Notes under the pieces: model-generated | Seen by the model: the letters and a program-made list of their open reading frames with translations, nothing else | The model's database searches: none | Told to the model about the DNA's origin: nothing | Part shown: one piece after another, positions 10,201-52,270 of the stretch | How the letters are laid out: the number at the start of each line of letters is the position of its first letter | How positions within the stretch are numbered: the first letter of the stretch is position 1 | Source: Candidatus Sericytochromatia bacterium | GTDB taxonomy: Bacteria; Cyanobacteriota; Sericytochromatia; UBA7694 | Direction: 5' to 3' | Assembly (NCBI GenBank): GCA_964229355.1 | Contig: CAXRDE010000023.1 | Coordinates: forward strand, 195,125 to 259,124 | DNA: 64,000 nucleotides | Translations under genes and position numbers: made by a program

Positions 10201-10918
10201 TGCTCAGGCCCAAACCATGTTGGACCAAATTGTCGACGAGGGTTGGCTCAAAGCCCACGCCGCTTTTGGTTTTTTTAGCGCCCAACGCCAGGGCGATGAT
10301 ATTCAAATTCAAACGGAACAGGGACCGGTGGTCATTCATACGCTACGTCAACAGCACGCCAAAAAAGGCCCGAACTATGCCCTGGCCGACTTTATTGCGC
10401 CTTCAGGCCATCAGGATCACCTGGGTGCTTTTGTGGTAACGACCGGAGACGGTATTGAAACCCATTTACAACGCTTTCGGGCTGCGCAGGATGACTTTAG
10501 TGCGATCATGCTGCAGGCCCTGGCGGATCGTCTGGCAGAAGCGCTCGCCGAAAAGTTGCACAAAGAGGTCCGTGAACAATGGGGCACGCCAGACAGTCCC
10601 GATTTAAGCCTTCACGATCTGATCAAAGAGCGCTATCCGGGCATTCGACCCGCCCCGGGTTATCCCGCATGCCCGGATCATACCGAAAAGCGCACCCTCT
10701 TCACCTTGCTAGGCGCCGAGGCATTGGGCGTACATTTAACCGAACATTGTGCCATGTACCCCACCGCCTCGGTGAGTGGTTGGTATTTTTCGCATCCTGA
10801 AAGTCGCTATTTTAGCCTGGGTAAAATTCTCAATGATCAGCTAACAGAGTATGCACAACGGAAAGGCTGGTCGGCCACAGAGGCCCGACAGTGGCTCCGA
10901 CCTAACCTGGATCTTTAA
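7289..10918 (+). CDS. metH: cobalamin-dependent methionine synthase
   Basis: Four-module architecture. It begins with an Hcy-binding module ([25 protein letters not shown]) and a pterin-binding module. The B12 domain carries the DxHxxG motif ([11 protein letters not shown]), and a C-terminal AdoMet-activation domain completes it. The track start at 7220 is a TTG extension; the canonical ATG is at 7289. Confidence 0.9.
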
Positions 10919-29342: not shown

Positions 29343-30858
29343 ACTCTCATGGTTCGATGAGCGCGCACGCGTGATGTTGCACCCGGCCCCCTGGCAAAGC
29401 GCCCATCTTGAACTGGCAGATATTCCAGATCATTATGCCTGGCAAGATCTCCGCTTGTATACGCATCCCCTCAGTGCCGAAGCAACCCCTGTTTATCTCA
29501 AAAAGAAGCAAAAGCCCTACTTTCACCTGCACGCCGACTGGATGGCTGCAGAACCCGGCATGCATCATATGCGTCTGGTACACACCGCTCAACCCCAGGT
29601 TCCTCTCTGGGAAACCCATTTTTTTCTCGCAGCTCCGCCTTTAACGGAGGATCTGTGGTTAAAAATCCTGCAAGAGACCTATGAGCAAAGCCACCTGCGG
29701 TTTCAGCCTCAGCCACGGGTCCCCTTTCATGCGCAACCTGCTTTGAAACATACGCCCCCCAATATTATAAGCGAGTTCCACACCCTTTTTTCTCTCCTCG
29801 CTTATGAGCCAGGCTTACAAAACAGCCTAAAGCACCTTCCTTTTAACCCCGCGTTACAGTGGACGCCATTGTATCGCCTGCAAAAAGTATCACCTGCTCT
29901 CTTGTTTCGTCACGTGTCTGCGCAACCCTTACATACAACGGTTTTAGAAACCCGAACACGACCCGAAGTGCCACTGGCAAACTATGTAAGTTTTCTTGTT
30001 CAGGCTTTACTTTCTCGCCTTAAACATCTCTGTTATTTGCTTCCCCAATCCTTAAAAACCCATCCTTTTTTAATCGAGCACCTTCAGAGCATGGGGCGGC
30101 AGGGCACGCTACTCTGGCAAGCCTGGCAACACCATCCTTATGCCAAAGCGTTGCCCCAATGGGGGCCCCATGCCCTCGCTGAATTAGAAGCCCTGGTAGC
30201 CCAAACCCCGGCCCTGAAGGTCTGGGTACACTGCGCCCAATGTCTCACAATGAGCGTCAGGCCCGATTTAGCCCCCCATTATATCGCCATGGGTTATCAG
30301 GGATTTGGATATGTCTATCAAAGCTGGTGTACCGCTTTGCTTAAAAGCAGCTTACACAACGCCCTGCTACCCAGAGGCTGGCAAAGCGTAGCGGTACACC
30401 ACGACCCCAAAACCCTGTGCTGGGAACACATCGAAACGGGTCAGCGTCTGGCGTTACGGGCAGAGCAACGCTTTTTACCTGAAGGCCCCGGGCAAAGTGG
30501 CCCCTTCAGTATCAGTCGGGGTCAACAGCCCGATGTGTGTTTGCTCTGGTTTAAAGACATAGACCACTGGCTGCGGTTTTCACCCCACAAGGGCCTGGTG
30601 TTTGAAATTAAGTTTCGGCAAGAGGGACTTCGTCCTCGCAAAATCGATTTGGACCGACTGCATGCTTATCGCGATGCGATATACACACAAATAGACGGCA
30701 ACAACACCCCACTTTTCAGGGGCGGTGCCCTCCTTTATCCGGGACAGCACGAAAATTACCCTCCCGGCCTACAGGCACTGACCTGTTTACCCGCGAAGGA
30801 ACTCAAGCTAGAATACCTGCTCGCTTTACTGCTTACTCCAATTACTGCTCAAACCTAA
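29329..30858 (+). CDS. McrC-like PD-(D/E)xK nuclease partner
   Basis: 509 aa. It overlaps the upstream McrB-like gene by 14 nt. The C-terminal region QQPDVCLLWFKDIDHWLRFSPHKGLVFEIKFRQ has a PD...D...ExK arrangement like the McrC nuclease core. The N-terminal ~400 aa has no other recognisable domain. Confidence 0.55.
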   Translation: MLNLKLSWFDERARVMLHPAPWQSAHLELADIPDHYAWQDLRLYTHPLSAEATPVYLKKKQKPYFHLHADWMAAEPGMHHMRLVHTAQPQVPLWETHFFLAAPPLTEDLWLKILQETYEQSHLRFQPQPRVPFHAQPALKHTPPNIISEFHTLFSLLAYEPGLQNSLKHLPFNPALQWTPLYRLQKVSPALLFRHVSAQPLHTTVLETRTRPEVPLANYVSFLVQALLSRLKHLCYLLPQSLKTHPFLIEHLQSMGRQGTLLWQAWQHHPYAKALPQWGPHALAELEALVAQTPALKVWVHCAQCLTMSVRPDLAPHYIAMGYQGFGYVYQSWCTALLKSSLHNALLPRGWQSVAVHHDPKTLCWEHIETGQRLALRAEQRFLPEGPGQSGPFSISRGQQPDVCLLWFKDIDHWLRFSPHKGLVFEIKFRQEGLRPRKIDLDRLHAYRDAIYTQIDGNNTPLFRGGALLYPGQHENYPPGLQALTCLPAKELKLEYLLALLLTPITAQT

Positions 30859-31844: not shown

Positions 31845-33071
31845 ATGAGCATCGTTGTACAAAAATTTGGGGGTACCTCAGTGGCTGACACTGAGCGTAT
31901 TCGTCGGGTTGCAGCCCGCGTTGCTGCAACCAAAGCAGATCATCCAGAGGGTGTCGTGGTGGTGGTTTCAGCCATGGGAAAAACCACGGATCACCTGGTC
32001 AACATGGCCCATGAACTCAGTAGCCAACCCAGCGCCCGCGAAATGGACATGCTATTATCTACCGGAGAACAAATTTCTATTGCCCTTTTATGTATGGCAC
32101 TGCAGGAATTGGGCTATAAAGCCGTGTCTCTCACAGGCGGACAAGCTGGTATTGTCACCGAAAGCTTACACACCAAAGCCAAAATACTCCACATCAACAC
32201 TGAAGTTCTCCATAAGCATTTGGCTGAGGACTATATTGTCGTGGTTGCAGGATTTCAGGGCGTTACCGCCGATCAACAAATCACCACCCTCGGTCGCGGG
32301 GGCTCCGACACCACCGCAGTGGCCCTGGCGGGCGCTCTGGAAGCCCCCGTTTGTGAAATTTATACCGACGTGGACGGTGTTTACACCACAGACCCCAACA
32401 GTGTACCCGCTGCCCAGAAGCTCAGTGAAATCTCTTACGAAGAAATGCTAGAGCTGGCTCACCTGGGTGCCAAGGTGCTCCACCCCCGCTCCGTAGAATG
32501 TGCAAAAAAATACGGAACAGCGCTTCATGTGCGCTCAAGTTTTAACACTGAAAAAGGAACACTGGTGAAAGCCATGAAAGATCTTGAAATTCAACGCCCC
32601 GTAACCGGGATTACCTCTGACTCGAACCAGGCCAAAGTAGCCATTCGCAGGGTGCCCGATCAACCCGGCATCGCGGCCCAGCTTTTTGGGGCTCTGGCTG
32701 ATGCCCATATTTCTGTGGACATGATCATTCAATCGGTGCAAGACGATATGAGCAACGATATCGCATTTACCGTCACCCAGGATGACCTCAACAAAGCGGT
32801 TGAAATCACCCAGGCCATGAGCCAGGAGATGGGCGCGGGCGAAGTGGTTTTTGACAAAGACATTGCCAAGGTGTCGATTGTAGGTGTAGGCATGATCGGC
32901 ACCCCAGGGATTGCCGCCAGTATGTTTGACGCGCTGGCCGCAGCCAATATTAATATTCAAATGATTTCCACTTCAGAAATTAAGGTCTCTTGCGTGGTGC
33001 ACAAAGAACAAGCGCCCAAAGCACTGGCCATTATTCACGAGCGCTTTATTGGTGCTGAAGTCGAAGTCTAA
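31845..33071 (+). CDS. lysC: aspartate kinase (two C-terminal ACT domains)
   Basis: [26 protein letters not shown] matches the aspartokinase N-terminus. [11 protein letters not shown] is present. Tandem ACT repeats follow ([30 protein letters not shown] and ...[27 protein letters not shown]). Confidence 0.9.
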
Positions 33072-38047: not shown

Positions 38048-40672
38048 ATGCCTTGGCATATATTATCTCCTGAAGAAGTCCTGAGCAAAATCCAATCTAC
38101 GCCTCAGGGACTATCGCAACACGAAGTCGAAGCACGGCAAAAAGAGCACGGCGAAAACGCACTGGTAGAAAAAGGCGTTAAAAGCCCCTGGGCCATTTTA
38201 TGGGAACAGCTCAGTTCAATTATGGTACTTATTTTGGTGGTGGCCGCCGGTCTCTCTGCGGTATTGGGCGATTATCAGGACGCCGTGGTGATTTTGGCCA
38301 TCATTGTCTTTTTTGTCTCACTGGGCGTTTTTCAGGAGTATCAGGCCGAACAAGCCATTGCAGCCCTGAAAAGCTTAGCGGTTCCAGATATTAAAACCCG
38401 GCGCGCAGGTCAATCACAAAAAGTGCCTGCTCCCCGGTTGGTGCCGGGAGATATTGTTTTATTAGAAGCTGGAGACCAGGTCCCCGCAGACTTACGACTC
38501 ATCGAAGCCCACCATCTCAAGGTGGAAGAAGCCGCTTTGACCGGCGAATCCCATGCGGTAGAAAAAAGCAGCGCGGCCATAGACGATAAAAGTGCGGCCC
38601 TTGCTGAGCGTTACAATATGCTCTACATGGGAACCCAGGTCACCTATGGCCGAGGCGTTGGTGTCGTGGTGGACACAGGCATGAATACAGAGCTCGGGCA
38701 CATTGCGGACATGATCCAAAATGTCGAAGAGCGCAAGACCCCCTTACAGAACCGCTTAGACCACGTGGGCAAAGTCCTGGCCGGTGTAGCTGTTGCTTTC
38801 TCCACCTTGATCTGTATGATCGGACTCTGGCGGGGAGAAGCTTTAAAAACCATGCTGTTAAGCGCTATTTCTGTGGCAGTAGCGGCCGTCCCCGAAGGCT
38901 TGCCTGCGGTGTTGACGGTTACCCTGGCTTTTGGAGCCCAACGCATGCTGAAACGCCATGCTCTGGTGCGTAAACTCACCGGCATTGAAACCTTAGGCTC
39001 GGTCTCTGTTATTTGCTCCGACAAAACGGGGACTCTCACTCAAAACAAAATGACCGTTACGCACCTTCTGGACTTAGAACAATGCCTGAATTTGGACAGC
39101 GTAAAGCCCCTGAATCGTTTAAGCCCCAACCTGCAACTAATGCTGCTTTGTGCAGCCCTGTGTAACGATGCAGAGATCCATGGCGAGACAAGCCAGGGGG
39201 ATCCCACAGAAATTGCCTTACTCCAGGCTGTCCTCACGCAGGGCTGGTCTTTAGAAAGCCTTCTGAGTGCGTTTCCTCGCGTCAATGAACTCCCCTTTGA
39301 CTCCGAACGCAAATGCATGACGACGCTTCATCAGATTACGTCTATCCCCGATTTTCTCACCCCGCTGGCAGAAGCCTATCCCGAATTTCAGGAAGGTGCC
39401 TATCTTCGTTTAACCAAGGGCTCCATTGATAGTCTTTTGGTGCGTGCAAGTGAAGCCCCAGAAACCCAATGGCAGTCTCAAAATAAAGCCCGCGCAGGCG
39501 AAGGTGAGCGGGTGTTGGCTTTTGGCTACCGTTGGCTCGAACAAGCTCCTGAAACAATAGATGAAGATCAATTGCAATTGCTCGGGCTGATGTCCATGAT
39601 CGATCCCCCACGCCCTGAAGCCAAAGAGGCCGTACAAACCTGTCTTGCGGCAGGTATTCGCCCCATTATGATTACGGGCGATCACCCCCTCACCGCTTCG
39701 AATATCGCTCGCCAGCTGGGAATTACCCAGGAAGAGCACGTCTTAACGGGACGAGAATTAGAGCCCCTTTCAGAAAGCCAATTGCAAGAAAAGCTCAAGA
39801 CCTACCAGGTTTTTGCGCGGGTCTCACCCGAGCACAAATTACGGATTGTGAAAGCCTTACAGGCTCAACATAAAATCGTAGCCATGACCGGTGACGGTGT
39901 CAACGATGCTCCCGCTCTGAAGCAAGCCGATATTGGTGTGGCCATGGGCATTACAGGAACCGATGTTTCAAAAGAAGCGGCCGACATGGTTTTACAAGAC
40001 GATAATTTTGCCACCATTGTGGCCGCCGTAGAGGAAGGCCGCATTATTTACGATAATCTGCGTAAGTTCATTAAATTTTCTGTGGCGGGTAATATGGGCA
40101 AAATTGGTGTCATGCTGGTCGCTCCGCTACTGGGCATGCCCCTGGCACTGGCTCCCATTCAAATGCTCTGGCTCAATTTGCTTACCGATGGCTTACTGGG
40201 CTTTGGCCTGGGGCTAGAAAAAGCCGAAGGCCAAATTATGCAGCGTCCCCCAACACCGCCTGATGAAAGTATTTTGGGCAACGGTATGACCCGTCAAATT
40301 CTGTGGATGGGCAGCCTCATTACGCTCATTTCAATGGGTCTGGGGGCCTGGGTGTGGATCCAAGAAGGTCCTGAAGCGCCCTGGCAATCGGTGCTGTTTA
40401 CCTCTTTGGCCTTTGCGCAAATTTTTCAGGCCCTGGGTATGCGCTCCAGTCGCGAACACCTCTGGGAAGTGGGCCTGACGAGTAACCCCACCTTACTGGG
40501 CATGATAGGGGTTGTCTTGCTGTTGCAATTGGGCGTCATTTATTTGCCGTTCTTGCAGCAGTATTTTCATACCCAGGCGCTCTCTTTGCCTTTGTTATTG
40601 ACGATTTTTTCCGTCAACGCCCTGATCCTTTGCATTGCAGAAGGACTCAAAGCCCTTGGCAAAGAAGTTTAA
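38048..40672 (+). CDS. P2-type cation-transporting ATPase (Ca2+/Mg2+-type)
   Basis: Phosphorylation motif ICSDKTGTLTQN, TGES, and the hinge MTGDGVNDAPALKQADIGVAMG, with 10 predicted TM segments. The start is the ATG that has a GAGGTG SD; the track start is 38036. Confidence 0.9.
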   Translation: MPWHILSPEEVLSKIQSTPQGLSQHEVEARQKEHGENALVEKGVKSPWAILWEQLSSIMVLILVVAAGLSAVLGDYQDAVVILAIIVFFVSLGVFQEYQAEQAIAALKSLAVPDIKTRRAGQSQKVPAPRLVPGDIVLLEAGDQVPADLRLIEAHHLKVEEAALTGESHAVEKSSAAIDDKSAALAERYNMLYMGTQVTYGRGVGVVVDTGMNTELGHIADMIQNVEERKTPLQNRLDHVGKVLAGVAVAFSTLICMIGLWRGEALKTMLLSAISVAVAAVPEGLPAVLTVTLAFGAQRMLKRHALVRKLTGIETLGSVSVICSDKTGTLTQNKMTVTHLLDLEQCLNLDSVKPLNRLSPNLQLMLLCAALCNDAEIHGETSQGDPTEIALLQAVLTQGWSLESLLSAFPRVNELPFDSERKCMTTLHQITSIPDFLTPLAEAYPEFQEGAYLRLTKGSIDSLLVRASEAPETQWQSQNKARAGEGERVLAFGYRWLEQAPETIDEDQLQLLGLMSMIDPPRPEAKEAVQTCLAAGIRPIMITGDHPLTASNIARQLGITQEEHVLTGRELEPLSESQLQEKLKTYQVFARVSPEHKLRIVKALQAQHKIVAMTGDGVNDAPALKQADIGVAMGITGTDVSKEAADMVLQDDNFATIVAAVEEGRIIYDNLRKFIKFSVAGNMGKIGVMLVAPLLGMPLALAPIQMLWLNLLTDGLLGFGLGLEKAEGQIMQRPPTPPDESILGNGMTRQILWMGSLITLISMGLGAWVWIQEGPEAPWQSVLFTSLAFAQIFQALGMRSSREHLWEVGLTSNPTLLGMIGVVLLLQLGVIYLPFLQQYFHTQALSLPLLLTIFSVNALILCIAEGLKALGKEV

Positions 40673-40762
40673 GGGCCTTGTCCAGTAAAAAGTCTGAGAG
40701 TTTGCTACAATTTTGAAAAGGGTTCGTCCCTGGAGTTTTGTCACCCATGGAGTCGGTTTATT

Positions 40763-43684
40763 ATGGTTTTTTCTCGTTCTCAGCGTGCGGTTAGCCTCGG
40801 TGCAGTCTCTCTTAGTGCCTGCCTTGCGGTAAGCTGTCAAAACCCATCGGAAACCCAGGGGCCTCAGCCTCGCCCGGCGGGGACGATTGCACCCACGGTC
40901 ACCTATACGGGAAACCCCGGTTCACCGGGCCAGGTTCCCCCCTCAGGCCTGCCCTCAGAACCGGGCCAACTCCGCTTTAAAATCAAAATTGATCGCCGCT
41001 TAATACAGGGCTTCGGCATTCAACAGCTGAGCAATTGCGCCCAGGATCTCAGTCAAATCGAAACCACAATAACCCTCTCTAGCCAGGTGTCGGCAGCCAC
41101 TCAAAGCGCTTTAGAACAGCAAGGCGTTGTGGTGGTCAACCAGGATGGGCAAAGCACGTTAACCTTTAACAATACCCTGGCCGAAGTGGATCCAGACACC
41201 CTGGAGATCAGCTACAGTTTTTCAGATCTTCCGCAGGGTGCCGCCATTGCCCAAACCCTGGTCAAAGGGGTCGAGAATGTAGCGTTCGGATTCGTTGATT
41301 ACAGTGTTACCGTGGATGACCAGGGCGGAAGTGTACTCAACGTCAGTCTCAACGCCACCGATAACCTCTCAAGTATCACCAGTTGCCCACAGCTGGAGGC
41401 CGAAGTGGAGGGCGGTGTACTCAGTGGGGCAGGGGGTAATATCGTGGTGCCCACACCCAGCCCCAGTCCCAGTCCCACACCCTCTCCCAGCGCCACGCCG
41501 GTCAACGCCACAGTACCCACCTTAAGCAGCATTAGCAAAACCCAGGGGCCACCGGCAAGTCAGGTGATCATTACAGGTACAGGTTTTGAAACCACCACCG
41601 CAGTCACCTTCGGCGGAGCGCCTGCCTTTGAATTTCGCATCGACAGTGATACCCAAATCACGGCCTACTCCACCAGTTCCAATCCGGTGGCAGGCACCGT
41701 CAAAGTTATCAATCCCGCAGGCGAAGCAGAGTCCAGCGCCATCTTTACCCCTCAAGTTGTCGCCAATCGTCGCATTTTTATTGCCCCCAACGGAAACGGA
41801 GATGGCTCCTCATGGTCACAAGCCCTTTCGCTCCGTTACGGTTTGGCCACCGCTCAGCCGGGTGATGAAGTGTGGGTACAGGCGGGTACCCATACGCCAG
41901 CAGCACCCGATGGGAATCGCAGCCACAGTTTTATCACCAATCCCAACGTTAAAATTTACGGTGGATTCTCAGGGAATGAGACGGCCCTCGACCAACGGGA
42001 TTCAGTCAGTAATCCCACCATTTTAAGCGGCGATCTCAACGGCAACGACAATTACACCGACAGCAGCATCGATGACTTAAACGATAATGCCTATCACGTT
42101 TTTATTGCCGCAGATCAGGTACATCTGGAAGGTGTCACCCTGCAAGGTGGCTATGCCAACGGGCCAGAAGTATCAGACCGACAGGGAGCGGGGCTTTACC
42201 TGAACCAGGGCAACTTAACCCTGGTTAACGTGCGTTTTGAGAACAATGTCAGCGCTTTTGCCGGAGGCGGTATTTATCAAACCCAGGGACAATTACAACT
42301 GGATACCGTGCACTTTGAAAACAACAACGCCGCTTTCTTAGGTGGGGGTCTGTTTAGCACCCGCAATGCCAGCGGCACCGGCAGTCAGGTTACCTTTGTG
42401 CGCAACACCGCCAAGCAGGGCGGTGGCATTGCCAATGACGGCAGCGGCATTGACTTGAATGGCTTTACCTTTGACGATAATGGCGCTCTTTACAGCGGCG
42501 GTGCCCTTTATAATCGTTCCGGTGCCAGCCCAGACTTTCAAAACGGGATCTTTAAAAACAATCGTGCCAGCAGTGGCGGCGCCGTCTACACCACAGATAC
42601 AAACACCCAACTGAAGCTCACAAGCGTGGTTTTTGAAAACAACGATGCCGATAACGGCGGAGCCATGTACAACTACAATTATGCATCTCCACAACTTGAA
42701 CAGGTACGCTTTACGGGCAATTTGGCAAACTTCTGGGGGGGGGCCCTCTACAATTACTTGCACGCCTCCCCCACCTTAAATCGTACAGCTTTTAACGACA
42801 ATGCAGCCCCCCGCGGCGGAGCAATATATAATCGCAGTCATGCTTCACCCCAAATTCAAAACAGCGTCTTCCATAACAATATCGCTTCTGATGGTGGGGG
42901 CGGTGCGATTTACAATTACAACGCCGCCTCGCCCAGCATGGTGCACCTCACCTTTTACAACAATCTTGCCAGCGCCGACAGTGGCGCAGATATTTTTTCC
43001 ACACTCTTGTGTCAACCCCGTCTGATCAACAGTATTGTCTGGAATGCCAATGCGAATCCGGTTTTTCAAGATGTGGATCGTCAAATTGAAATTTTAAACT
43101 CCACGGTGTTAAATATGGAGGGCGTCAACTCTATTGGCTTTTCAAATTTAGACATCAACCCACGCTTTGTGGATAGCGCCAACCCGCTGGGTCCAGACGG
43201 CATCTTAATGACGGCTGATGACGGGCTACGCCTGGCCAATAATAGCCCTGTTTCAGACTTTGCCAGTAGCACCTACACCTCGCCGCTGGATGTGCTGGGT
43301 GTTCCCCGTGTGGGAAATCCCGATCAGGGTGCTTACGAAGGCGAGTTTGACGCGGTTTTAGGCGTCTTACAAAGCGAAGACCTGGTCGTTGGCTCAGGCC
43401 CTGGTGCCACCAGCGGCGATGTACTGGTGGTAGACTATACGGGCGCTATTCAAGGGGGTGGGCAGTTCAATAACACCTATACCCAGGGCAGTCCTTTCCA
43501 GTTTATTTTGGGAACCGGTGCAGTCATTCAGGGTTGGGATCAGGGGCTCCAGGGCTTACAGGTGGGTGGAAAAAGACGCCTGATTGTGCCTTCTCATCTG
43601 GCCTATGGCGAACAAGGGCTAGGTCCTATACCACCCGGTTCAACCCTGGTATTTGAAATTGAGCTGCGCAGTATTAACCCTTGA
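40763..43684 (+). CDS. large lipoprotein: IPT/TIG domain + parallel beta-helix (Pmp-like GGAI/FxxN repeats) + C-terminal FKBP-type peptidyl-prolyl isomerase
   Basis: Lipoprotein signal (SLSACLAVSC). A PSPSPSPTPSPS linker is followed by an IPT/TIG-like segment. About 15 repeats of the type GGAIYN / GGALYN / FxxN appear over ~450 aa. The C-terminal 95 aa (GDVLVVDYTGAIQGGGQFNNTYTQGSPFQFILGTGAVIQGWDQGLQGLQVGGKRRLIVPSHLAYGEQGLGPIPPGSTLVFEIEL) aligns closely with FKBP12. Confidence 0.7.
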   Translation: MVFSRSQRAVSLGAVSLSACLAVSCQNPSETQGPQPRPAGTIAPTVTYTGNPGSPGQVPPSGLPSEPGQLRFKIKIDRRLIQGFGIQQLSNCAQDLSQIETTITLSSQVSAATQSALEQQGVVVVNQDGQSTLTFNNTLAEVDPDTLEISYSFSDLPQGAAIAQTLVKGVENVAFGFVDYSVTVDDQGGSVLNVSLNATDNLSSITSCPQLEAEVEGGVLSGAGGNIVVPTPSPSPSPTPSPSATPVNATVPTLSSISKTQGPPASQVIITGTGFETTTAVTFGGAPAFEFRIDSDTQITAYSTSSNPVAGTVKVINPAGEAESSAIFTPQVVANRRIFIAPNGNGDGSSWSQALSLRYGLATAQPGDEVWVQAGTHTPAAPDGNRSHSFITNPNVKIYGGFSGNETALDQRDSVSNPTILSGDLNGNDNYTDSSIDDLNDNAYHVFIAADQVHLEGVTLQGGYANGPEVSDRQGAGLYLNQGNLTLVNVRFENNVSAFAGGGIYQTQGQLQLDTVHFENNNAAFLGGGLFSTRNASGTGSQVTFVRNTAKQGGGIANDGSGIDLNGFTFDDNGALYSGGALYNRSGASPDFQNGIFKNNRASSGGAVYTTDTNTQLKLTSVVFENNDADNGGAMYNYNYASPQLEQVRFTGNLANFWGGALYNYLHASPTLNRTAFNDNAAPRGGAIYNRSHASPQIQNSVFHNNIASDGGGGAIYNYNAASPSMVHLTFYNNLASADSGADIFSTLLCQPRLINSIVWNANANPVFQDVDRQIEILNSTVLNMEGVNSIGFSNLDINPRFVDSANPLGPDGILMTADDGLRLANNSPVSDFASSTYTSPLDVLGVPRVGNPDQGAYEGEFDAVLGVLQSEDLVVGSGPGATSGDVLVVDYTGAIQGGGQFNNTYTQGSPFQFILGTGAVIQGWDQGLQGLQVGGKRRLIVPSHLAYGEQGLGPIPPGSTLVFEIELRSINP

Positions 43685-44871
43685 ACGCCCTCTTTTTTGT
43701 GGAATACTTCCCCGAGCCCTGGCAACATATAGCCGTTGATTTGCAAACGGCTCTGTTGATGCTGATCTCTGGATTAATAACCTACAGTTTAAGTCAACGC
43801 CTCCTTTTGCCCATGATTGCTCGTTTTGTGCGCAGCACCCAATTTAAATGGGATGATGTATTTTTTGAGCACCGGGTATTTCATATCATTCCTTATTTGG
43901 CAGGTCTTAGCGCCCTTTCGCCCTTCTCCTTTATGAACCCGCAGTTTAATACGGGCTTTAGCCGCAGCATTTTGATTCTGATTTTAATCGTGTTTTTGTT
44001 GACTTTGCACCGCATCTTAAACGCCATTGAGGCCATTTATAACAACTACGATGTTTCCCGAGAAAAGCCCATCAAAACCTACTTTCAGGTGATTATGTTG
44101 GTGCTATCTTTAGGGGTCGCCCTCATCAGTATCGGCATTATTTTTCAGCAATCTGTGCTCACCCTAATTAGTGGACTGGGTGCGATTACCGCAGTCTTAA
44201 TGCTCATTTTCAAAGATCCCATCAGCGGCTTCGTGGCGGGCATTCAACTCACGGTCAATCACATGATCCGCCTGGGAGACTGGATTGAAATGCCGGATTA
44301 CAAAGCCGATGGCGAAGTGATCGAAATTAACATGACCACCCTGAAAGTGCGCAATTGGGATTTCACCATTACCACCATTCCCGTCCAGGCACTCACCGCA
44401 GGCTCTTTTCGCAACTGGCGCGGCATGACCGAAATGGGGGGAAGGCGTATAAAGCGCAGCCTGCTGATTGATGTACGAAGTATTTCATTTTGCTCCGAAG
44501 CGTTGCTTTCTGATTTACAGCACATGCCCCGCTTACAAAATTACCTGACTGAGCGATGCGCCGAAATTCAACAGCACAATCAACACCACGGCTACGAAGA
44601 AATGCCCCAGCGGGGAGGTCGACACCTGACCAATATTGGTCTGTTTCGCCAATACACCTTAACTTACTTGCGTGAACAGTCCCAAATTCATCAAGACATG
44701 CCCCTCATGGTGAGACAACTTCAGCCCCATGAGTTTGGACTTCCCCTGGAGATTTATGCTTTCAGCCGCCAGACCGCCTGGATAGATTATGAAAACCTGC
44801 AAAGCGATATTTTTGACCATTTAATCGCCATGGTGCCCGCATTTGAACTCCGGCTGTATCAACGGCCCTGA
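43681..44871 (+). CDS. mechanosensitive ion channel (MscS family)
   Basis: TM helices are followed by the MscS beta-domain signature ISGFVAGIQLTVNHMIRLGDWIEM...GEVIEINMTTLKVRNWDFTITTIPV. The track start is a TTG overlapping the upstream stop, so the true start is uncertain. Confidence 0.75.
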   Translation: MNALFFVEYFPEPWQHIAVDLQTALLMLISGLITYSLSQRLLLPMIARFVRSTQFKWDDVFFEHRVFHIIPYLAGLSALSPFSFMNPQFNTGFSRSILILILIVFLLTLHRILNAIEAIYNNYDVSREKPIKTYFQVIMLVLSLGVALISIGIIFQQSVLTLISGLGAITAVLMLIFKDPISGFVAGIQLTVNHMIRLGDWIEMPDYKADGEVIEINMTTLKVRNWDFTITTIPVQALTAGSFRNWRGMTEMGGRRIKRSLLIDVRSISFCSEALLSDLQHMPRLQNYLTERCAEIQQHNQHHGYEEMPQRGGRHLTNIGLFRQYTLTYLREQSQIHQDMPLMVRQLQPHEFGLPLEIYAFSRQTAWIDYENLQSDIFDHLIAMVPAFELRLYQRP

Positions 44872-44879
44872 GGTAAGCC

Positions 44880-47870
44880 ATGGAAATTTTTACCTCTCCA
44901 ATATTTTTAAGCCTTCACAGTTTGTTTTTTTTAATCAGTCTGGCGGGCTTTATAGGCTTATCTTTTCGTCAGAACCGCAAGTTAAAGCGCATTATTGCTG
45001 AACAAAGCACCACTCTCCAACGCCTGGCTGACTCAGAAACTTTGCTACAGCGCATGTTTGACATCGTACCGGTAGGGATTTCACTCATGGATACCTTTGG
45101 CAATATTATCGATTGCAACGGGGCCTCAGAGCAATTGCTGGGACTCAGTAAAGATGAGCACAGCGGCAGACACATCACCTCTGAGGCCTGGGAGATCTAT
45201 GATGCCACAGGCCGGAAAATACCCGCCGAAGCTTATGCCAGCGTCCGCGCACTGCGCGCCCAAAAAGAAATAGTGGGTCAGGAAATAGAAGTACGCAAGC
45301 CCGATGGCGATAGCGTGTGGCTAAGCGTCAATGCCACGCCTTTTTTGCACTCCCGCTACGCCCTTTTGGTGAGCTACTACGATATTACGCCTCAAAAACA
45401 AGCTGAACAAGCCCGTCTCAATCATCAAAACTTCTTAAGCACCTTGATTCAGACCATCCCCGATCTCATGTGGTTTAAAGATCCCCAGGGAATCTACCTG
45501 CAATGTAACCGACGGTTTGAAGCTTTTTTTGGTAGATCTGCCTCGGGCATTATTGGCAAAACGGACCATGACTTTGTGTCAGCTTCTCAGGCGGACCTGT
45601 TTCGCCACTATGACCAGCTCGCCATGCACAGCGGCGAGCCCGTGGTGAACCAGGAATGGGTCACCTTTGCCAAAGACGGCCATCGAGAGTTGCTTGAGAC
45701 CACCAAGACTGCTGTGTATAACCCTCAAAAGCAGCTGATCGGTGTCCTGGGCATTGGTCACAATATTACCGACACCCATGCCCTGCAAGAAGCCCTGGAA
45801 CTCACCACCTCAAGTTACGAGGAGCTTTTTAACTCGGTGCTTGAATCGGTAGTCATTGAAGATGCCGAAGGGCGTATTGTGGCTGTCAATAAAAGCGTCA
45901 CCCGCTTATTGGGTTATGAAGAAGAGTGGTTAATCCATAAACCCATTGCAGAATTGGCTGCTCCGCGCAACAAAAACGCAGCACAAGCCCTGTTGCGCAC
46001 CAAGGCCTGGGAGGGCAGGCCTCAGGTCTATACCAGTTGGCTTCAGCACATAAATGGCAACGTTTTTCCAGTAGAAATTCATCAAACCAGCGGGATGTGG
46101 TTTGGTCAAAAAGCCCTCTTTACGATTATGACCGACATTTCAGAGCGTTGGTCTCATCAACAAGAGCTTGAGCTTATCGCCCACTATGATAGCTTAACGC
46201 ATTTGCCCAATCGTGTCCTGCTGAGTGATCGCATTTTACAAGCCATGGCCCAGAGTGAACGCACAAAAGGCTTACTGGGCGTTGTGTTTTTGGATCTCGA
46301 CGGTTTTAAACGTGTCAACGATACTTACGGCCACGCGGCGGGTGACCGTTTACTCGTCAAGCTGGCCGTAAGACTTAAGGCTGCATTACGCAAAGGAGAT
46401 ACCCTCGCACGTATTGGGGGAGACGAGTTTGTGGCGGTGATCCTCAATCTGGAGAGTGCCCAGGCTATCACCCCCATTTTAGAGCGCTTGCTGCAAGCCG
46501 CTGCGGAGCCTTTTCAATGGGACGCTGTCGAAGCCAGGGTCTCTGCGAGTCTGGGCGTTACGTTTTACCCCCAAAAGCATTTATTAGACGTGGATCAACT
46601 GCTGCGTCAGGCCGATCAAGCCATGTATCAGGCAAAGCAGTCGGGTAAAAACCGTTATCACATTTTTGACCCTGTTGAAGACCACGATATTCGCCAACAT
46701 CACCAGGATATGCAACGGCTGCAGGAAGCCTTTGAAAACCAGGAGTTTTGCCTGTATTATCAACCCAAAGTCAATATGTACACAGGCCAGGTGTTAGGTG
46801 CAGAAGCTTTAATTCGTTGGCAGCATCCTGAACGAGGGGTATTGGCACCCGTGTACTTTTTACCCACCCTCGGTGAAGGCCCCTTGAGTCTTTCTCTGGG
46901 AGACTGGGTGCTCGAAAGCGCGCTCAAACAATTGCAACAGTGGCAAGCCCAGGGGCTTCACCTTTCGGTTAGCGTTAATATTCAAGGCAATCACCTTCAA
47001 TCCCCTGATTTTGCCGAGCGCTTGCAAGCACTTCTGCAGGCACATCCAGAAATTTCCCCGGAAGACCTTGAGCTGGAAGTGTTAGAAACCCATCTGATTG
47101 AAGACTTAAAGCACACCTCGGCCATTATTCAAAAATGTCAGGAGTTAGGTGTGCAATTTGCCTTAGACGACTTTGGCACCGGCTATTCTTCACTGAGTTA
47201 TCTCAAGGAGCTTCCTGTGAACACTTTAAAAATTGATCAAAGTTTTGTGAGAGACATGCTCGAAACCCCTGAAGATCTTTCCATTTTAGAGAGCACGCTG
47301 GAGCTGGCAAAAACCTTTCACAAACACGTGATTGTCGAGGGCGTTGAAACTCTGGCTCACGGGCGAATTCTTTTGCAACTGGGCAGCCTCTGGGGTCAGG
47401 GTTACGGTATTGGACGCCCCATGCCGGCAGAAGCTTTCGAAAAATGGTGCCGAAGCTGGACATTACCAACCCTTTGGAAAGAAACGTATCCGGTCGCTAA
47501 AGGGCTTCGTCCCCTGCTCATCGCTATTGCCGAACACAAAGCCTGGTTTCAAGAGCTCAATCACCTGCTCAAACATACCGCTCCCACTGAAGACCTTAAG
47601 ATCTTTGATAAACTTTGCCGCCTACACCATTGGTTCTATCACACGTATTCCACAAAGGAAGCAGAAAGTCTACTTTTTCAAGAGGCTTCAGACCACCATG
47701 AAAAACTTCACCAGCGTGTACAACAGCTTTTTCCTGATATTTTAACGCGCTCTCCAGCTGAAAAAGAGGAGATTGCCCAGGAGCTGAATAAACAGTGGCA
47801 GATTATCGAAGATAAGCTGCAACACTGGCTCAATCAGCAAAGTAATCCCGGTATCTCAAAGATTTTATGA
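44880..47870 (+). CDS. PAS/PAC-GGDEF-EAL signalling protein (c-di-GMP turnover)
   Basis: N-terminal TM segment, then three PAS-like segments. GGDEF domain: LDLDGFKRVNDTYGH...RIGGDEFV. EAL domain: EALIRWQHPERG, ALDDFGTGYSSLSYL, KIDQSFV. An extra C-terminal ~130 aa has unknown function. A GAGGTAAG SD is present. Confidence 0.85.
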   Translation: MEIFTSPIFLSLHSLFFLISLAGFIGLSFRQNRKLKRIIAEQSTTLQRLADSETLLQRMFDIVPVGISLMDTFGNIIDCNGASEQLLGLSKDEHSGRHITSEAWEIYDATGRKIPAEAYASVRALRAQKEIVGQEIEVRKPDGDSVWLSVNATPFLHSRYALLVSYYDITPQKQAEQARLNHQNFLSTLIQTIPDLMWFKDPQGIYLQCNRRFEAFFGRSASGIIGKTDHDFVSASQADLFRHYDQLAMHSGEPVVNQEWVTFAKDGHRELLETTKTAVYNPQKQLIGVLGIGHNITDTHALQEALELTTSSYEELFNSVLESVVIEDAEGRIVAVNKSVTRLLGYEEEWLIHKPIAELAAPRNKNAAQALLRTKAWEGRPQVYTSWLQHINGNVFPVEIHQTSGMWFGQKALFTIMTDISERWSHQQELELIAHYDSLTHLPNRVLLSDRILQAMAQSERTKGLLGVVFLDLDGFKRVNDTYGHAAGDRLLVKLAVRLKAALRKGDTLARIGGDEFVAVILNLESAQAITPILERLLQAAAEPFQWDAVEARVSASLGVTFYPQKHLLDVDQLLRQADQAMYQAKQSGKNRYHIFDPVEDHDIRQHHQDMQRLQEAFENQEFCLYYQPKVNMYTGQVLGAEALIRWQHPERGVLAPVYFLPTLGEGPLSLSLGDWVLESALKQLQQWQAQGLHLSVSVNIQGNHLQSPDFAERLQALLQAHPEISPEDLELEVLETHLIEDLKHTSAIIQKCQELGVQFALDDFGTGYSSLSYLKELPVNTLKIDQSFVRDMLETPEDLSILESTLELAKTFHKHVIVEGVETLAHGRILLQLGSLWGQGYGIGRPMPAEAFEKWCRSWTLPTLWKETYPVAKGLRPLLIAIAEHKAWFQELNHLLKHTAPTEDLKIFDKLCRLHHWFYHTYSTKEAESLLFQEASDHHEKLHQRVQQLFPDILTRSPAEKEEIAQELNKQWQIIEDKLQHWLNQQSNPGISKIL

Positions 47871-49824: not shown

Positions 49825-50955
49825 ATGACTGACAAAACATATCATGTAATCATTGCAGGCTCAGGTGGCATTGGAAGTGCCACAGCATTATTATTGCAAC
49901 AGGGTCTTATTCAAACCGAAGTGTATCTGGGAGACGCTTCTCTAGATGCCGCCCAGGCCGCTGCTGCCTGGGTAGAAGCTGGCTTTGATCATCCCGTACG
50001 TGTCCATGCTTTTGAAATGCCTCTGGAAGGAACCAGCGCCATCTTCGATCAGTATTTGGCCCAGGCAGATATTTTGTTGGACTGCTTGCCCGGTAGCGAA
50101 GCACCCCGCATGGCCCGTCTGGCCAAACAACACGGTCTGCATTACGCCAATGTCACCGAATACGTCAAAGAAACCGACGAGATCATGGCCCTGGGTCAGG
50201 GTATTGAGCAGGGGTTCATTTTGCAAACCGGCCTGGCCCCCGGCTTTATTAACGTCCTGGGCATGCAGTTGTTCCAACAATTTTGTCACACCTTCGGCGT
50301 TGAGAAAGCAGACACCGTCAAAATGCGCGTGGGTGCTTTAACCGATGAGATCGTTGCTCCCCATTACTATGGTTTTACCTGGAGTAAGGTGGGCGTGGCC
50401 ACCGAGTATCTCAAGCCGGCCATTGTGGTCAGAGACTTTGAAAAAACCGAGCGTCCTTCACTCACGGATCTTGAGACCTTAAACGTCAACGGCGTCGACT
50501 ATGAAGAAGCCTTAACCTCTGGCGGGGTTTCCGATCTGCCCGACGCTTTGGCCGGTCGTGTCCGTCATTTGGATTATAAAACCCTGCGCCACCCCGGCCA
50601 CTATCAATGGGTTATTAACGCCATTGAGAGCGAAGATTTACATACTCCTGATCAGCTGCAAAACTACATGGAAGAACATATTCCTGACTTTGAAGCTGAT
50701 TTTGTGGTGATTTATGCCTCTGTGGAGGGCAAAGACAGCACAGGTACCCCTCAAAAGCTGGAAAAATCCTATCATATTAAGCCTTCTCAGGTGGGCAAGC
50801 ACACCCTGCGGGCCATTCAATCCACCACTGCAGCGGGTCTTGCCGAGTCAGCGCGCATGTTGCTTGAAGGCCACGTCAAAGGCCCTATTTTACAAAGCGA
50901 TGTAAATCCTGATACCTTTATGCAAGGGCCCTTTGTGTCCGAAATTTATATCTAA
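49825..50955 (+). CDS. saccharopine dehydrogenase-family NAD(P)-binding oxidoreductase
   Basis: Rossmann N-terminus YHVIIAGSGGIGSATALLL and LLDCLPGSEAPRMARLAKQHGLHYANVTEY. Overall length fits Sacchrp_dh / LysDH / homospermidine-synthase-like enzymes. Confidence 0.5.
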   Translation: MTDKTYHVIIAGSGGIGSATALLLQQGLIQTEVYLGDASLDAAQAAAAWVEAGFDHPVRVHAFEMPLEGTSAIFDQYLAQADILLDCLPGSEAPRMARLAKQHGLHYANVTEYVKETDEIMALGQGIEQGFILQTGLAPGFINVLGMQLFQQFCHTFGVEKADTVKMRVGALTDEIVAPHYYGFTWSKVGVATEYLKPAIVVRDFEKTERPSLTDLETLNVNGVDYEEALTSGGVSDLPDALAGRVRHLDYKTLRHPGHYQWVINAIESEDLHTPDQLQNYMEEHIPDFEADFVVIYASVEGKDSTGTPQKLEKSYHIKPSQVGKHTLRAIQSTTAAGLAESARMLLEGHVKGPILQSDVNPDTFMQGPFVSEIYI

Positions 50956-50977
50956 GCACCATGCAAAGGAATTGAGA

Positions 50978-52270
50978 ATGAGAAACTTGAGATCCTTACC
51001 CTGGAAACGTTGGGGAAGCCTTGCCCTGCTGAGCAGTCTGGCTCTGGGCAGTTGTCAGGGTTCACGCCCTTTAACGGTACCGGTGAACCGCAGTTTCTCT
51101 TCTCAAACCACCGTAGGACCTCAGGCACCTACCCCTCAGGCGATTCCTGGCGAAGTTGTGGTACGCTTGCGCTCAGGCGTCCCGCCAGAAGACTATGCCC
51201 AACGCCATGGTTTACGTTTTAAAGAAGCCCTGGGGCTTCACATGTACGTCTTTGAAAGTGAGGTTCCTGTGGCTTTAAGTCATTTAAGCCAGGACCCCAG
51301 TACCCACTGGGTGGAACCCAACTATACCCTGAGCTTGCCTCCCGTATCGGGTCGCGAAGCCGCCCCCCCGCAACCCCATATGCCGGTCCGCAGTACACTG
51401 CCCAACGATCCGCTACTGCCCGCCCAATATGGCTTTAGCATTACTGGTATGGAGCAAGTCTGGCGACAGCACCCCGGACGCCCTGAAGTGGTGGTGGCCG
51501 TGATCGACTCAGGGATTGACGGCAGCCATCCGGAGTTTCAGGGACAACTGGTGGAAGGGTTTGATTTCACCTTAAAAACACCCGCTCCCGGGGGGACTAT
51601 AGACGGCTATGGCCACGGCACCCATGTGGCGGGCGTGATCGGTGCTCTCAGCAATAACGGCCAGGGCATCGCGGGCCTGGCCCCGGGATGTAAGCTCATG
51701 CCTGTGCGCATTTTTAACAACTGGGGTCAATCGGAGTCCGGCCGCTCTGCCAAAGCCGTCATCTGGGCCGTGGATCAGGGCGCAAAAGTCATTAACGCCA
51801 GTTGGGGAAGCCCCATGCTGGGCGAGGCTTCTAAAGCCGCCTACGAATATGCCCTTGCAAAAGATGTGGTCTTTGTGGCGGCCGTGGGCAATGCGGGCAA
51901 TGAAGATCCCAAATATCCTGGCGCCGTTGCTGAGGCGATTGGCGTGGCCGCTACCAATGCCGACGATCGCTGGGGGAGTTTTTCGACCTTTGGAGAATGG
52001 GTAGATCTGGGCGCACCCGGTGCCGGCATCTTGTCGACTTACCCCTTAGCAAAAGGCAACGGCTACCGTATTATGGACGGCACCTCAATGGCTGCTCCTT
52101 TTGTGAGTGCTGCAGCCGCTTTACTGCGTTCCCAACACCCTGACTGGAGCGTGGCACAGGTACGACAACGCCTGGAATCCACCGCCAAAGACGTGATTAT
52201 GGCCGGTAAAGATAAGTACTCAGGGTACGGTCGTGTAGATATTGCAGCGGCTCTGAACAACGAAAGATAG
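50978..52270 (+). CDS. subtilisin-like serine protease (S8), lipoprotein
   Basis: Catalytic triad contexts VVVAVIDSGID, HGTHVAGVIGA and GTSMAAPFVSAAAALL. Lipobox LALGSC. The start is moved to the Met that has an AGGAA SD; the track start at 50933 overlaps the previous gene. Confidence 0.85.
   Translation: MRNLRSLPWKRWGSLALLSSLALGSCQGSRPLTVPVNRSFSSQTTVGPQAPTPQAIPGEVVVRLRSGVPPEDYAQRHGLRFKEALGLHMYVFESEVPVALSHLSQDPSTHWVEPNYTLSLPPVSGREAAPPQPHMPVRSTLPNDPLLPAQYGFSITGMEQVWRQHPGRPEVVVAVIDSGIDGSHPEFQGQLVEGFDFTLKTPAPGGTIDGYGHGTHVAGVIGALSNNGQGIAGLAPGCKLMPVRIFNNWGQSESGRSAKAVIWAVDQGAKVINASWGSPMLGEASKAAYEYALAKDVVFVAAVGNAGNEDPKYPGAVAEAIGVAATNADDRWGSFSTFGEWVDLGAPGAGILSTYPLAKGNGYRIMDGTSMAAPFVSAAAALLRSQHPDWSVAQVRQRLESTAKDVIMAGKDKYSGYGRVDIAAALNNER

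Follow-up and report, generated by a model that had tools for sequence, protein, structure and literature searches.

A predicted lipoprotein of a Sericytochromatia bacterium combines a Pmp-like beta-helix with a C-terminal FKBP domain in a rare, conserved architecture

Introduction

There is no ATP for protein folding outside the cytoplasm, and therefore bacteria depend there on tethered or periplasmic chaperones with peptidyl-prolyl isomerase (PPIase) activity. The known extracytoplasmic PPIases Mip, FkpA, SurA and BamJ/K are small. Mip has also been reported to bind collagen, and both chlamydial polymorphic membrane proteins (Pmps) and Gram-positive Ig-fold adhesins bind ligands. Carbohydrate-active enzymes are common among right-handed beta-helices. 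The Sericytochromatia are an uncultured, non-photosynthetic sister class of the oxygenic cyanobacteria, their deepest-branching relatives, and the biology of their envelope is essentially unstudied.

[quoted passage not shown] The periplasmic PaFkbA requires its non-FKBP module for chaperone activity (PMC8113782). BamJ is a surface lipoprotein of the BAM dome in Bacteroidota; it carries FKBP_C and works outside the cytoplasm, where it belongs to a proposed chaperone cage (PMC12578637). Here we analysed a 64,000-nucleotide stretch of a Candidatus Sericytochromatia genome (the window), in which one gene combines an FKBP domain with modules of another kind.

Results

The gene and its family

The open reading frame at 40763..43684 of the plus strand starts with ATG, ends with a stop codon at 43682-43684 and encodes 973 aa. 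The product is 100% identical to P0001 in the protein collection. Its features are listed in Table 1. The promoter/terminator scan of positions 40500-44000 gave no convincing candidate exceeding the shuffle expectation. No RNA family was matched in the Rfam scan of the window, and therefore no leader or riboswitch is indicated.

Table 1. Features of the lipoprotein gene in the window.
Feature	Residues	Position	Strand	Basis
GGAG ribosome-binding-like motif		40749..40752	+	10 nt 5' of ATG, read from sequence
Lipoprotein signal peptide	1-25	40763..40837	+	Lipobox L-A-V-S-C, Cys25
Disordered Pro/Gly/Gln/Thr-rich tether	26-65	40838..40957	+	Composition, pLDDT
N-terminal beta-sandwich domain	66-232	40958..41458	+	AF2 model; Cys92, Cys208
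Pro/Ser/Thr-rich linker	233-251	41459..41515	+	Composition, low pLDDT
IPT/TIG Ig-like domain	252-333	41516..41761	+	Pfam TIG, all-beta model
Right-handed parallel beta-helix	334-790	41762..43132	+	Chlam_PMP, POMP_repeat, motif spacing, model
C-terminal helix cap and flexible linker	791-865	43133..43357	+	Conservation, choice-of-anchor-Q-like
FKBP-type peptidyl-prolyl isomerase domain	866-973	43358..43681	+	Pfam, PDB, Foldseek

The whole architecture, with the lipobox and the FKBP pocket, recurs in fifteen full-length relatives, whose identity to the window protein is about 37-80%. They come from separate samples and from several sources (NCBI, JGI, ENA, Logan), and the gene calls at six independent loci agree on a product of 962-1010 aa. 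The fusion could in principle be an artefact, a beta-helix gene and a small FKBP gene having been joined by a frameshift or in a chimeric contig. This is extremely improbable: the frame is single and unbroken, and it runs on through the junction between helix and FKBP (..GAYEGEFD.V..), which all 15 sequences conserve. Because these relatives from separate samples all conserve the fusion, we regard the 3' frameshift, which the initial annotation had named as a possible artefact, as effectively refuted. The gene is thus genuine and conserved, and it encodes a predicted cell-envelope lipoprotein.

We searched 1.84 billion representatives with the segment spanning the helix cap and the FKBP domain. 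Among the best 150 matches, which reach down to about 238 bits and are filled up by multi-FKBP proteins, about eight clusters (50% identity) match the whole segment, in proteins of 950-1000 aa. Judged by these matches, the architecture is rare and the family is small. That the architecture is confined to this family is unproven, because unrelated beta-helix proteins with one FKBP would score beneath about 238 bits, outside the best 150. The architecture had been called unusual from the first reading. It is so as a rare combination, but PPIases carried on a scaffold outside the cytoplasm are found elsewhere too, because FKBPs are also embedded in big extracellular cadherin-FKBP and Ig-like/CARDB-FKBPx4 proteins. 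The protein is a rare combination of well-known domains, and it is not revolutionary. A scan of genome contigs with the full-length alignment retained 80 loci, which were ordinary single-domain FKBPs (Pseudomonas, others), one of the two patterns being the FKBP core; L053 and L004, whose matches appeared longer, were both small FKBPs, and the scan therefore says nothing about the family.

Public records name one relative simply 'FKBP-type peptidyl-prolyl cis-trans isomerase', and a second one is entered as 'outer membrane repeat protein'. Each label covers just a part of the protein, and correcting this is of practical use.

The N-terminal half

Under the PROSITE-type lipobox rule, a basic N-region and a hydrophobic stretch precede the motif [LVI..][..][AGS]-C, which lies within positions 15-35. 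The window protein matches it at Cys25 and also at a second lipobox-like site, Cys20. Cys25 is invariant in 15/15 aligned family members, and 14 of the 15 match the rule, the exception being a truncated start call. This bears out the proposed lipoprotein signal. Lipid anchoring outside the cytoplasm is the sole localisation feature that is supported by the sequence. The tether that follows (P24% G16% Q11% T11%) is weakly conserved and differs in length between family members; in the model of the protein, residues 1-60 have a pLDDT of 21-26.

Next comes a separate domain of about 165 aa, on which the initial annotation was silent. It was modelled with AF2 as a beta-sandwich of 11 strands and 2 helices (pLDDT 87.4, pTM 0.82). 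Its two cysteines are invariant in the family alignment and probably form a disulfide, Cys92-Cys208; two such cysteines are what is expected for a location outside the cytoplasm. The domain matched nothing in Pfam and nothing among the PDB sequences. The fold search against the PDB gave no convincing neighbour, the best being the collagen-binding N2 domain of Cnm (TM 0.27-0.29). A word-index homology search with the domain profile returned zero matches and also missed the family members themselves, so that absence cannot be inferred from it. The pattern scan of metagenome contigs gave 193 pattern matches and 0 confirmed ones.

The linker is 32% Pro, 26% Ser and 16% Thr, in agreement with the PS-rich linker noted initially. 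Its length differs among members, and residues 232-247 have a pLDDT <50. The TIG domain passes the Pfam cutoff marginally (PF01833, residues 252-319, 23.1 bits vs 20.9, E 7.5e-5). It was also assigned in five relatives (P0004, P0007, P0009, P0223, P0232), its region is modelled as all-beta (pLDDT about 70-89), and its core S-x-T-x-I-T-A, within the DSDTQITA motif, is invariant. The IPT/TIG segment proposed earlier is therefore upheld by the cutoff, the five relatives and the model together.

The beta-helix

The helix opens with the cap motifs GDGSSW...PGDEVWV...YGGFSGNE...TILSGD and continues with about 15 coils in total, of which 10 are canonical, with 26-28 aa each and the pattern F-x-N-N...GGA[ILM]Y...ASP. 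The Pfam Chlam_PMP repeats score 61.9 bits against a cutoff of 20.6 (E 1.9e-17), and TIGR01376 (POMP_repeat) is also above its cutoff. We counted 9 GG[AG][ILMV] motifs at a spacing of 26-28 aa, 6 of them strict GGA[ILMV], and 12 FxxN motifs. In 2000 shuffles of the segment the means were 0.3 for GG[AG][ILMV] and 3.1 for FxxN, with maxima of 3 and 10, and the strict motif occurred 0.15 times. The regular spacing, the profile score and the excess over shuffles establish the Pmp-like beta-helix that had been recognised in the initial annotation. The 'about 15 repeats' of that reading are fair as a count of motifs or coils, but canonical coils number only 10. The model is all-beta, with pLDDT >90 across about residues 380-700. 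More than 100 relatives of the helix were found, many with Pfam Beta_helix (PF13229), and the segment matched no PDB sequence.

The C-terminal cap carries the motif NPxFVD...GPDG...T.DDGLRL...D..G..R....D.GAYEG. NCBIfam choice_anch_Q (NF041518) reaches 17.5 bits over residues 823-860, with a cutoff of 25. The Pfam search of the protein revealed neither an autotransporter barrel nor a Pmp middle domain at E<=1; the C-terminus is the FKBP domain, and the initial statement that a barrel is lacking agrees with this.

Eight charged or aromatic residues are invariant near the N-terminus of the helix: D368, W371, E406, R412, D424, D429, Y431 and H445. Since right-handed beta-helices are often carbohydrate-active, these residues could belong to a catalytic domain of the polysaccharide lyase or hydrolase type, to which the FKBP would be an accessory. 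We consider such an envelope enzyme highly improbable: no enzyme family was matched in Pfam or NCBIfam, the PDB search gave no sequence relative, and by reading the invariant residues lie in the cap motifs GDGSSW, PGDE.WV, YGGF.G.E and TILSGD. These motifs look typical of the non-enzymatic PMP/choice-of-anchor-Q-type proteins, the broad family that supplies the helix relatives.

The FKBP domain

Pfam FKBP_C (PF00254) matches residues 882-968 with 100.8 bits against a cutoff of 21.1 (E 5.5e-29), covering profile positions 5-93 of 94. The C-terminal ~100 residues are 38% identical to human FKBP12 with just three one-residue gaps, and so the likeness to FKBP12 noted at the outset holds. The identity is 50% to the Mip-like BpMIP/BpML1 of Burkholderia, and with FkpA of E. 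coli it is about 41-42%; the best PDB sequence matches have an E of about 2e-26. Foldseek assigned the FKBP fold, in which a five-stranded sheet wraps a short helix, with TM 0.72-0.82 (normalised to target) and an rmsd of 2.3-2.4 A to BpMIP, FKBP12 and FKBP13. The model of this region was built on a 10-sequence alignment and its pLDDT is patchy, about 40-84.

The substrate cavity of FKBP12 is lined by Y26, F36, D37, F46, V55, I56, W59, Y82 and F99 (PMC8530231). In the window protein Y26, F36, F46, F48, V55, I56, W59, Y82 and F99 are present (FKBP12 numbering), so that all pocket aromatics, whose loss had been named as the point to check, are retained. The sole notable change in the pocket is D37, which is N903 here and had escaped the initial annotation. 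In TtSlyD the equivalent substitution D23A leaves 78% of kcat/KM (PMC5034536), and therefore D37N is unlikely to be inactivating. Across the family (n=15) there is no variation at Y26, F48, V55, I56, Y82 and F99, and W59 is kept in 14/15 and D37 in 13/15. The mean pairwise identity is highest in the FKBP domain with the C-terminal cap (0.56 vs 0.41-0.50 for the other domains). On this alignment, the substrate pocket is under purifying selection. It could be that the predicted domain serves as a binding module instead of a catalyst.

The initial annotation suggested that the protein might chaperone itself. The FKBP domain would then isomerise, in cis, the conserved prolines of the coils (..ASP..) and speed the folding of its own helix outside the cytoplasm, in a compartment that lacks ATP-dependent chaperones. 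It would be well placed for this, being joined by a flexible linker directly after the helix in a strictly conserved fusion, and the prolines lie in successive coils, P643, P670 and P696 being invariant and P590 and P724 at least 90% conserved. However, the proline-bearing coil motif is about equally common in relatives that have no FKBP (0.41 of coils in 50 such relatives vs 0.56 in the family), which weakens the claim. FKBP_C is found in 10 of the 120 helix relatives listed, and because so few carry it, such helices generally fold without a built-in PPIase. A C-terminal foldase would also leave the Sec channel later than its presumed substrate. We therefore find self-chaperoning quite doubtful.

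Gene neighbourhood and divergence

No conserved operon partner was found across the examined loci. The upstream P-type ATPase gene is common only to the close relative L081, the downstream MscS/GGDEF-EAL genes are absent at L081, and the distant loci have unrelated neighbours; neither was accepted as part of a functional operon. The gene for prolyl-tRNA synthetase (ProRS) lies directly 3' in two divergent loci and is absent from four other contexts, so that a functional link was rejected and the arrangement was taken as ancestral synteny. The neighbouring genes give no pointer to another role.

The protein evolves faster than most of its neighbours: its identity is 65%, against 68-92% for 7/8 syntenic neighbours, and in a second comparison 44% for the family protein against 80% for the adjacent ProRS. 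Such a rate would suit a surface adhesin or matrix-binding protein, whose beta-helix, TIG domain and beta-sandwich would bind polysaccharide or protein, the FKBP being an extra ligand-binding head for proline-rich targets and not a general foldase. Adhesins typically have PMP-type repeats and TIG domains, the only, weak fold neighbours of the N-terminal domain are collagen-binding or MSCRAMM Ig-like domains, and relatives of the helix bear surface-sorting signals, for example the Por tail of T9SS. However, those fold matches are not significant (TM <0.3), the difference in rate is modest, with the neighbour TPR-GT2 diverging still faster (60%), and conservation extends beyond the surface to the catalytic pocket of the FKBP. 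An adhesin is an unlikely explanation, though one to be taken seriously.

Discussion

Among the functional readings, we infer that a foldase tethered to a scaffold, the other suggestion of the initial annotation, fits the evidence best. We tentatively favour an envelope-anchored foldase or chaperone whose FKBP is held on a rigid beta-helix stalk, a Mip-like design with another spacer, although we put its probability slightly short of even. The conserved fusion, the invariant lipobox cysteine and the pocket, which appears to be under selection, all fit it, and so does the linker between helix and FKBP, predicted to be flexible (residues 852-867, pLDDT <50). After export and lipidation the protein would project from the membrane, with the FKBP placed at the distal end of the stalk, whose length the number of coils puts at about 7-8 nm. 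In this position it may bind other exported proteins at segments that are unfolded or contain proline, catalyse the prolyl cis/trans isomerisation of these segments, and thus act as an ATP-independent anchored foldase or chaperone. Because about 800 conserved aa far exceed the needs of a spacer, the beta-helix, TIG and N-terminal domains together suggest a binding function of their own.

A more specific idea is that of a lineage-specific extracytoplasmic folding station, in which the lipid-anchored stalk keeps the PPIase at a set height above the membrane and the protein folds PMP-type helices or aids outer-membrane or surface assembly. This appears very doubtful to us. If true, the helices served would be its own and those of others, with a conserved proline per coil, and the deepest-branching cyanobacterial relatives would have, in this protein, a stand-alone equivalent of the PPIases in the BAM dome of Bacteroidota.

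What we describe is a domain architecture that is uncharacterised and not a new mechanism; comparable fusions of FKBPs with extracellular modules are known. Among extracytoplasmic PPIases, a 100-kDa lipoprotein that presents its FKBP on a beta-helical rod would be a new type of scaffold, and it would offer an entry point to the study of the Sericytochromatia cell envelope.

With the chlamydial Pmps, which are type V autotransporters, the protein shares the repeated GGA(I/L/V) and FxxN motifs, from which a right-handed beta-helix passenger is built. It does not belong to the chlamydial Pmps, however: the Pmp middle domain and beta-barrel are missing, the lipid anchor is N-terminal and the C-terminus is an FKBP. 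The closest relatives of the helix are environmental proteins of the PMP-like/'choice-of-anchor Q' type, at 28-40% identity in alignments that cover 30-55% of the query; at least one of them, P0064, bears the latter name. By reading, they share with the window protein the cap motifs and a terminal D..G..R...D.GAYE element, but they end in Por_Secre_tail, cadherin, SLH or other modules and not in FKBP. The metagenomic proteins P0249, P0201, P0234 and P0274 also carry FKBP_C within long proteins, composed of cadherin, HYDIN/ASH Ig-like and CARDB modules. Unlike the window protein, they have two to four tandem internal FKBPs and no PMP-type beta-helix, and they are unrelated beyond the FKBP.

BamJ is likewise a lipoprotein with FKBP_C, but a small single-domain one that docks on BamH/BamI in a different phylum. 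The window protein scores 53.6 bits with the BamJ model NF053689 (cutoff 100), and it does not have the acidic lipoprotein-export signal of Bacteroidota, there being one acidic residue among the first six after the Cys. The FKBPs of the Mip/FkpA type (Mip of Legionella, Neisseria and Chlamydia, FkpA of E. coli, FkbA of P. aeruginosa) are extracytoplasmic, several are lipid-anchored, and they share the C-terminal FKBP12-like PPIase domain with a rigid spacer separating it from the anchor. In contrast to them, the window protein has no FKBP_N dimerisation domain (Pfam) and no long connecting alpha-helix, and beta-sandwich, TIG and beta-helix make up its spacer of about 800 aa. Its matches to the FkpA/FklB models (NF008150, 80.7 bits vs 215; NF008602, 56.2 vs 198) are limited to the FKBP domain. 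Since the protein falls short of the FkpA, FklB and BamJ models and the dimerisation domain of Mip is absent, the analogy is architectural only. The design would follow the principle of Mip, FkpA and BamJ, that is, an anchor, a spacer and an FKBP, with an array of beta-helix and Ig domains as the spacer in place of a dimerising alpha-helix.

Domain architecture of the predicted lipoprotein

The gene studied occupies positions 40763..43684 on the + strand of the window, begins with an ATG codon with a GGAG motif 10 nt 5' of it, and encodes a protein of 973 aa. Using Pfam, we found an FKBP_C domain at residues 882-968 (100.8 bits, E 5.5e-29) and Chlam_PMP repeats (61.9 bits, E 1.9e-17), both above the curated cutoffs, together with an IPT/TIG domain spanning residues 252-319, whose 23.1 bits exceed the cutoff of 20.9. 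NCBIfam also matched a POMP repeat in the protein and gave a weak, sub-threshold match to choice-of-anchor-Q at residues 823-860. The initial annotation had described an open reading frame with a lipoprotein signal, an IPT/TIG segment and a Pro/Ser-rich linker. The lipobox cysteine, the TIG match and the composition of the linker bear this out.

Segments of the 973-aa protein, as determined from the family alignment, composition and two AlphaFold models
Segment	Residues	Observations
Lipoprotein signal peptide	1-25	Lipobox Cys25 invariant in the family
Disordered Pro/Gly/Gln/Thr tether	26-65	pLDDT ~21-26 across residues 1-60
Beta-sandwich domain	66-232	pLDDT 87 and pTM 0.82 when modelled alone; Cys92 and Cys208 invariant
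Pro/Ser/Thr linker	233-251	P 32%, S 26%, T 16%
TIG Ig-like domain	252-333	Pfam TIG; model all-beta
Right-handed beta-helix	334-790	pLDDT >90 over most of its length; ~15 coils by period
Conserved cap (NPxFVD..GPDG..DDGLRL..D.LG..R...D.GAYEG)	791-865	Low-confidence linker at its end, 852-867
FKBP domain	866-973	Pfam FKBP_C; pocket intact

The helix contains nine GG[AG][ILMV] motifs (six of them strict GGA[ILMV]) at a spacing of 26-28 aa and 12 FxxN motifs. In shuffled sequences these numbers were 0.3 and 3.1, so both motifs occur far above chance. Taken together, they mark 10 coils as canonical, all within residues 486-757. Thus, the proposed number of about 15 Pmp-like repeats agrees with the period of the helix, but only 10 coils are canonical. 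No sequence relative of the helix was found in the PDB. It is very unlikely that the helix bears an enzyme, since neither Pfam and NCBIfam nor the PDB sequences gave a match to an enzyme family. The beta-sandwich domain has no match in Pfam or among PDB sequences and no convincing fold relative; the top match was a collagen-binding adhesin domain with a TM of 0.27-0.29.

The FKBP domain

The FKBP domain shares 50% identity with a Burkholderia Mip-like FKBP; with human FKBP12 the identity is 38%, and that alignment has three single-residue gaps. Its model superimposes on FKBP structures with a TM of 0.72-0.82 and an rmsd of ~2.4 A. We compared it with the list of FKBP12 substrate-cavity residues (PMC8530231). 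It turned out that Y26, F36, F46, F48, V55, I56, W59, Y82 and F99 (FKBP12 numbering) are all kept. The sole exception is D37, which is Asn903 in the window protein; the closest relative has Asn as well, and the remaining 13 of the 15 family members have Asp. In TtSlyD, the equivalent change D23A retains 78% of the catalytic efficiency (PMC5034536). Therefore, the substitution is no argument for an inactive domain. The C-terminal FKBP assignment thus stands, including the active-site aromatic residues, whose loss had been named as the evidence against it.

The family and the reality of the fusion

A homology search revealed nine further full-length proteins (962-1010 aa, 36-80% identity, 98-100% coverage), all nine with FKBP_C. 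Five additional full-length members and one fragment emerged from an exhaustive profile search with the helix-cap and FKBP segment. The assemblies behind these sequences, from NCBI, JGI, ENA and Logan, represent different samples. Across the 15 aligned members, the lipobox Cys, the two cysteines of the N-terminal domain, the S-x-T-x-I-T-A core of the DSDTQITA motif in the TIG domain, the helix-FKBP junction motif and the FKBP core are invariant, and the glycines and asparagines of the coils are mostly so. Mean pairwise identity is highest in the FKBP domain and cap (0.56), followed by TIG (0.50), the helix (0.46) and the N-terminal domain (0.41). The possibility that the gene is an artefact fusion, raised earlier as a frameshift at the 3' end, is negligible: the reading frame is unbroken at the junction and all 15 members keep the architecture. 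Judging from these sequences, a frameshift or chimera is excluded for practical purposes. The gene call of one member, P0005, apparently starts too late, as it lacks the signal-peptide N-region and has its Cys at position 13; P0121, from the same cluster, is longer by 19 aa.

Clustering at 50% identity puts the helix-cap and FKBP combination into about eight clusters, against a total of 1.84 billion representatives; this count covers the best 150 matches of the profile search, where unrelated fusions of a helix with a single FKBP would score lower and thus be absent. On this sequence evidence the combination is rare, and every component domain is already known. No description of it was found in the searchable literature.

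Host and gene neighbourhood

The aspartate kinase encoded in the window (31845-33071, +) shares 74-77% identity with proteins of Candidatus Sericytochromatia/Blackallbacteria MAGs but no more than 56-60% with those of oxygenic cyanobacteria; the family member P0008 bears a Sericytochromatia label. Therefore, by sequence identity, the host is a member of Sericytochromatia, the non-photosynthetic diderm sister class of cyanobacteria. Two ORFs of 634 and 779 aa (22143-24047 and 24196-26535, both -), each with a flagellar hook FlgE/F/G D1 domain, suggest that this lineage has flagellar genes; in the distant locus L084, FliD is encoded close to the target homologue. Elsewhere in the window are a complete cobalamin-dependent methionine synthase MetH (7220-10918, +; 1232 aa, all five domains, listed with a TTG start) and two ORFs of 778 and 509 aa (3818-6154 and 29329-30858, both +) for which Pfam gives nothing at E<=1e-5; the latter of these comes after an AAA_5 (MoxR/dynein-type) ATPase ORF (28005-29342).

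The target is one of a long series of genes that all point in the same direction: VWA/YfbK, P-type cation ATPase, target, MscS-like channel, PAS-GGDEF-EAL, FHA-cyclase, GST, saccharopine dehydrogenase, subtilase and TPR-glycosyltransferase. With the listed TTG as its start, the MscS-like gene overlaps the stop codon of the target by 4 nt (43681-43699 region), and an alternative in-frame GTG start is at 43699. The same block is found in the close syntenic locus L081, where a porin (Porin_O_P) gene separates the ATPase from the target and one further glycosyltransferase is present. L081 is without the MscS-like channel (window 43681-44871), the PAS-GGDEF-EAL protein with its C-terminal CZB zinc-binding domain (44880-47870) and the subtilase (50933-52270). 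In four more distant loci the neighbours are unrelated. Thus, there is no conserved operon partner.

A prolyl-tRNA synthetase (ProRS) gene stands directly 3' of the beta-helix-FKBP gene, on the same strand, in L084 (13258-14724) and L089 (11018-12484), next to the divergent members P0010 and P0006, respectively. The window, L081, L086 and L087 lack it; probably ProRS next to the target is the ancestral order. Most of the neighbouring genes diverge more slowly than the target (60-92% identity across the syntenic block, against 65%), and P0010 and P0006 share 44% identity, versus 80% between their two adjacent ProRS. Such divergence, as read from sequence, fits an exposed envelope protein but is non-diagnostic.

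Possible function

The window protein has predicted export and lipidation signals and a modular, rod-like extracytoplasmic body, as well as a conserved, flexibly tethered FKBP domain whose predicted pocket is intact. Together, the tether and the sandwich, Ig and helix domains would keep the FKBP domain some distance off the membrane, where it would act on exported polypeptides. By analogy, we tentatively regard the protein as an anchored, ATP-independent foldase or chaperone. That it is instead an adhesin with the FKBP domain as a ligand-binding head seems unlikely. Still less probable is self-chaperoning, in which the FKBP domain would act on the conserved coil prolines P590, P643, P670, P696 and P724 of its own helix: in 50 relatives that lack an FKBP, the proline motif is found almost as often (0.41 of coils, against 0.56 in the family), which weakens this explanation, and only 10 of the 120 helix relatives among the matches listed have an FKBP. 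The anchored foldase is a plausible, unproven mechanism that implies no new principle, and the protein offers a testable architecture in an uncultured lineage.

Comparison with known systems

[quoted passage not shown] The anchor-spacer-FKBP logic of these proteins may apply to the window protein too. However, it lacks the FKBP_N domain of Mip (Pfam), and it scores far under the NCBIfam cutoffs of the FkpA, FklB and BamJ models, with matches limited to the FKBP domain. Membership of the Mip or BamJ family was therefore rejected.

FKBP domains also occur in other large extracellular proteins, such as cadherin proteins with two FKBPs and Ig-like/CARDB proteins with four. Thus, a scaffold-borne extracytoplasmic PPIase is not unprecedented, and the architecture, called unusual in the initial annotation, is rare but not the only one of its kind. 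In four metagenomic proteins outside the family (P0249, P0201, P0234 and P0274; 829-2863 aa), between two and four FKBP_C domains are set among extracellular modules, including cadherin, HYDIN/ASH Ig-like and CARDB. These proteins seem to form a class of scaffold-borne FKBPs of their own, one that is apparently uncharacterised.

With the chlamydial Pmp proteins the window protein shares the Pmp repeats. Identity with them was rejected, since Pfam detected neither the autotransporter barrel, whose absence had been noted from the start, nor the Pmp middle domain. Judged by its sequence, the helix probably falls into the broad environmental PMP-like/choice-of-anchor-Q class. C-terminal sorting signals are usual in that class, whereas the window protein has a predicted lipid anchor at its N-terminus and an FKBP domain at its C-terminus instead.
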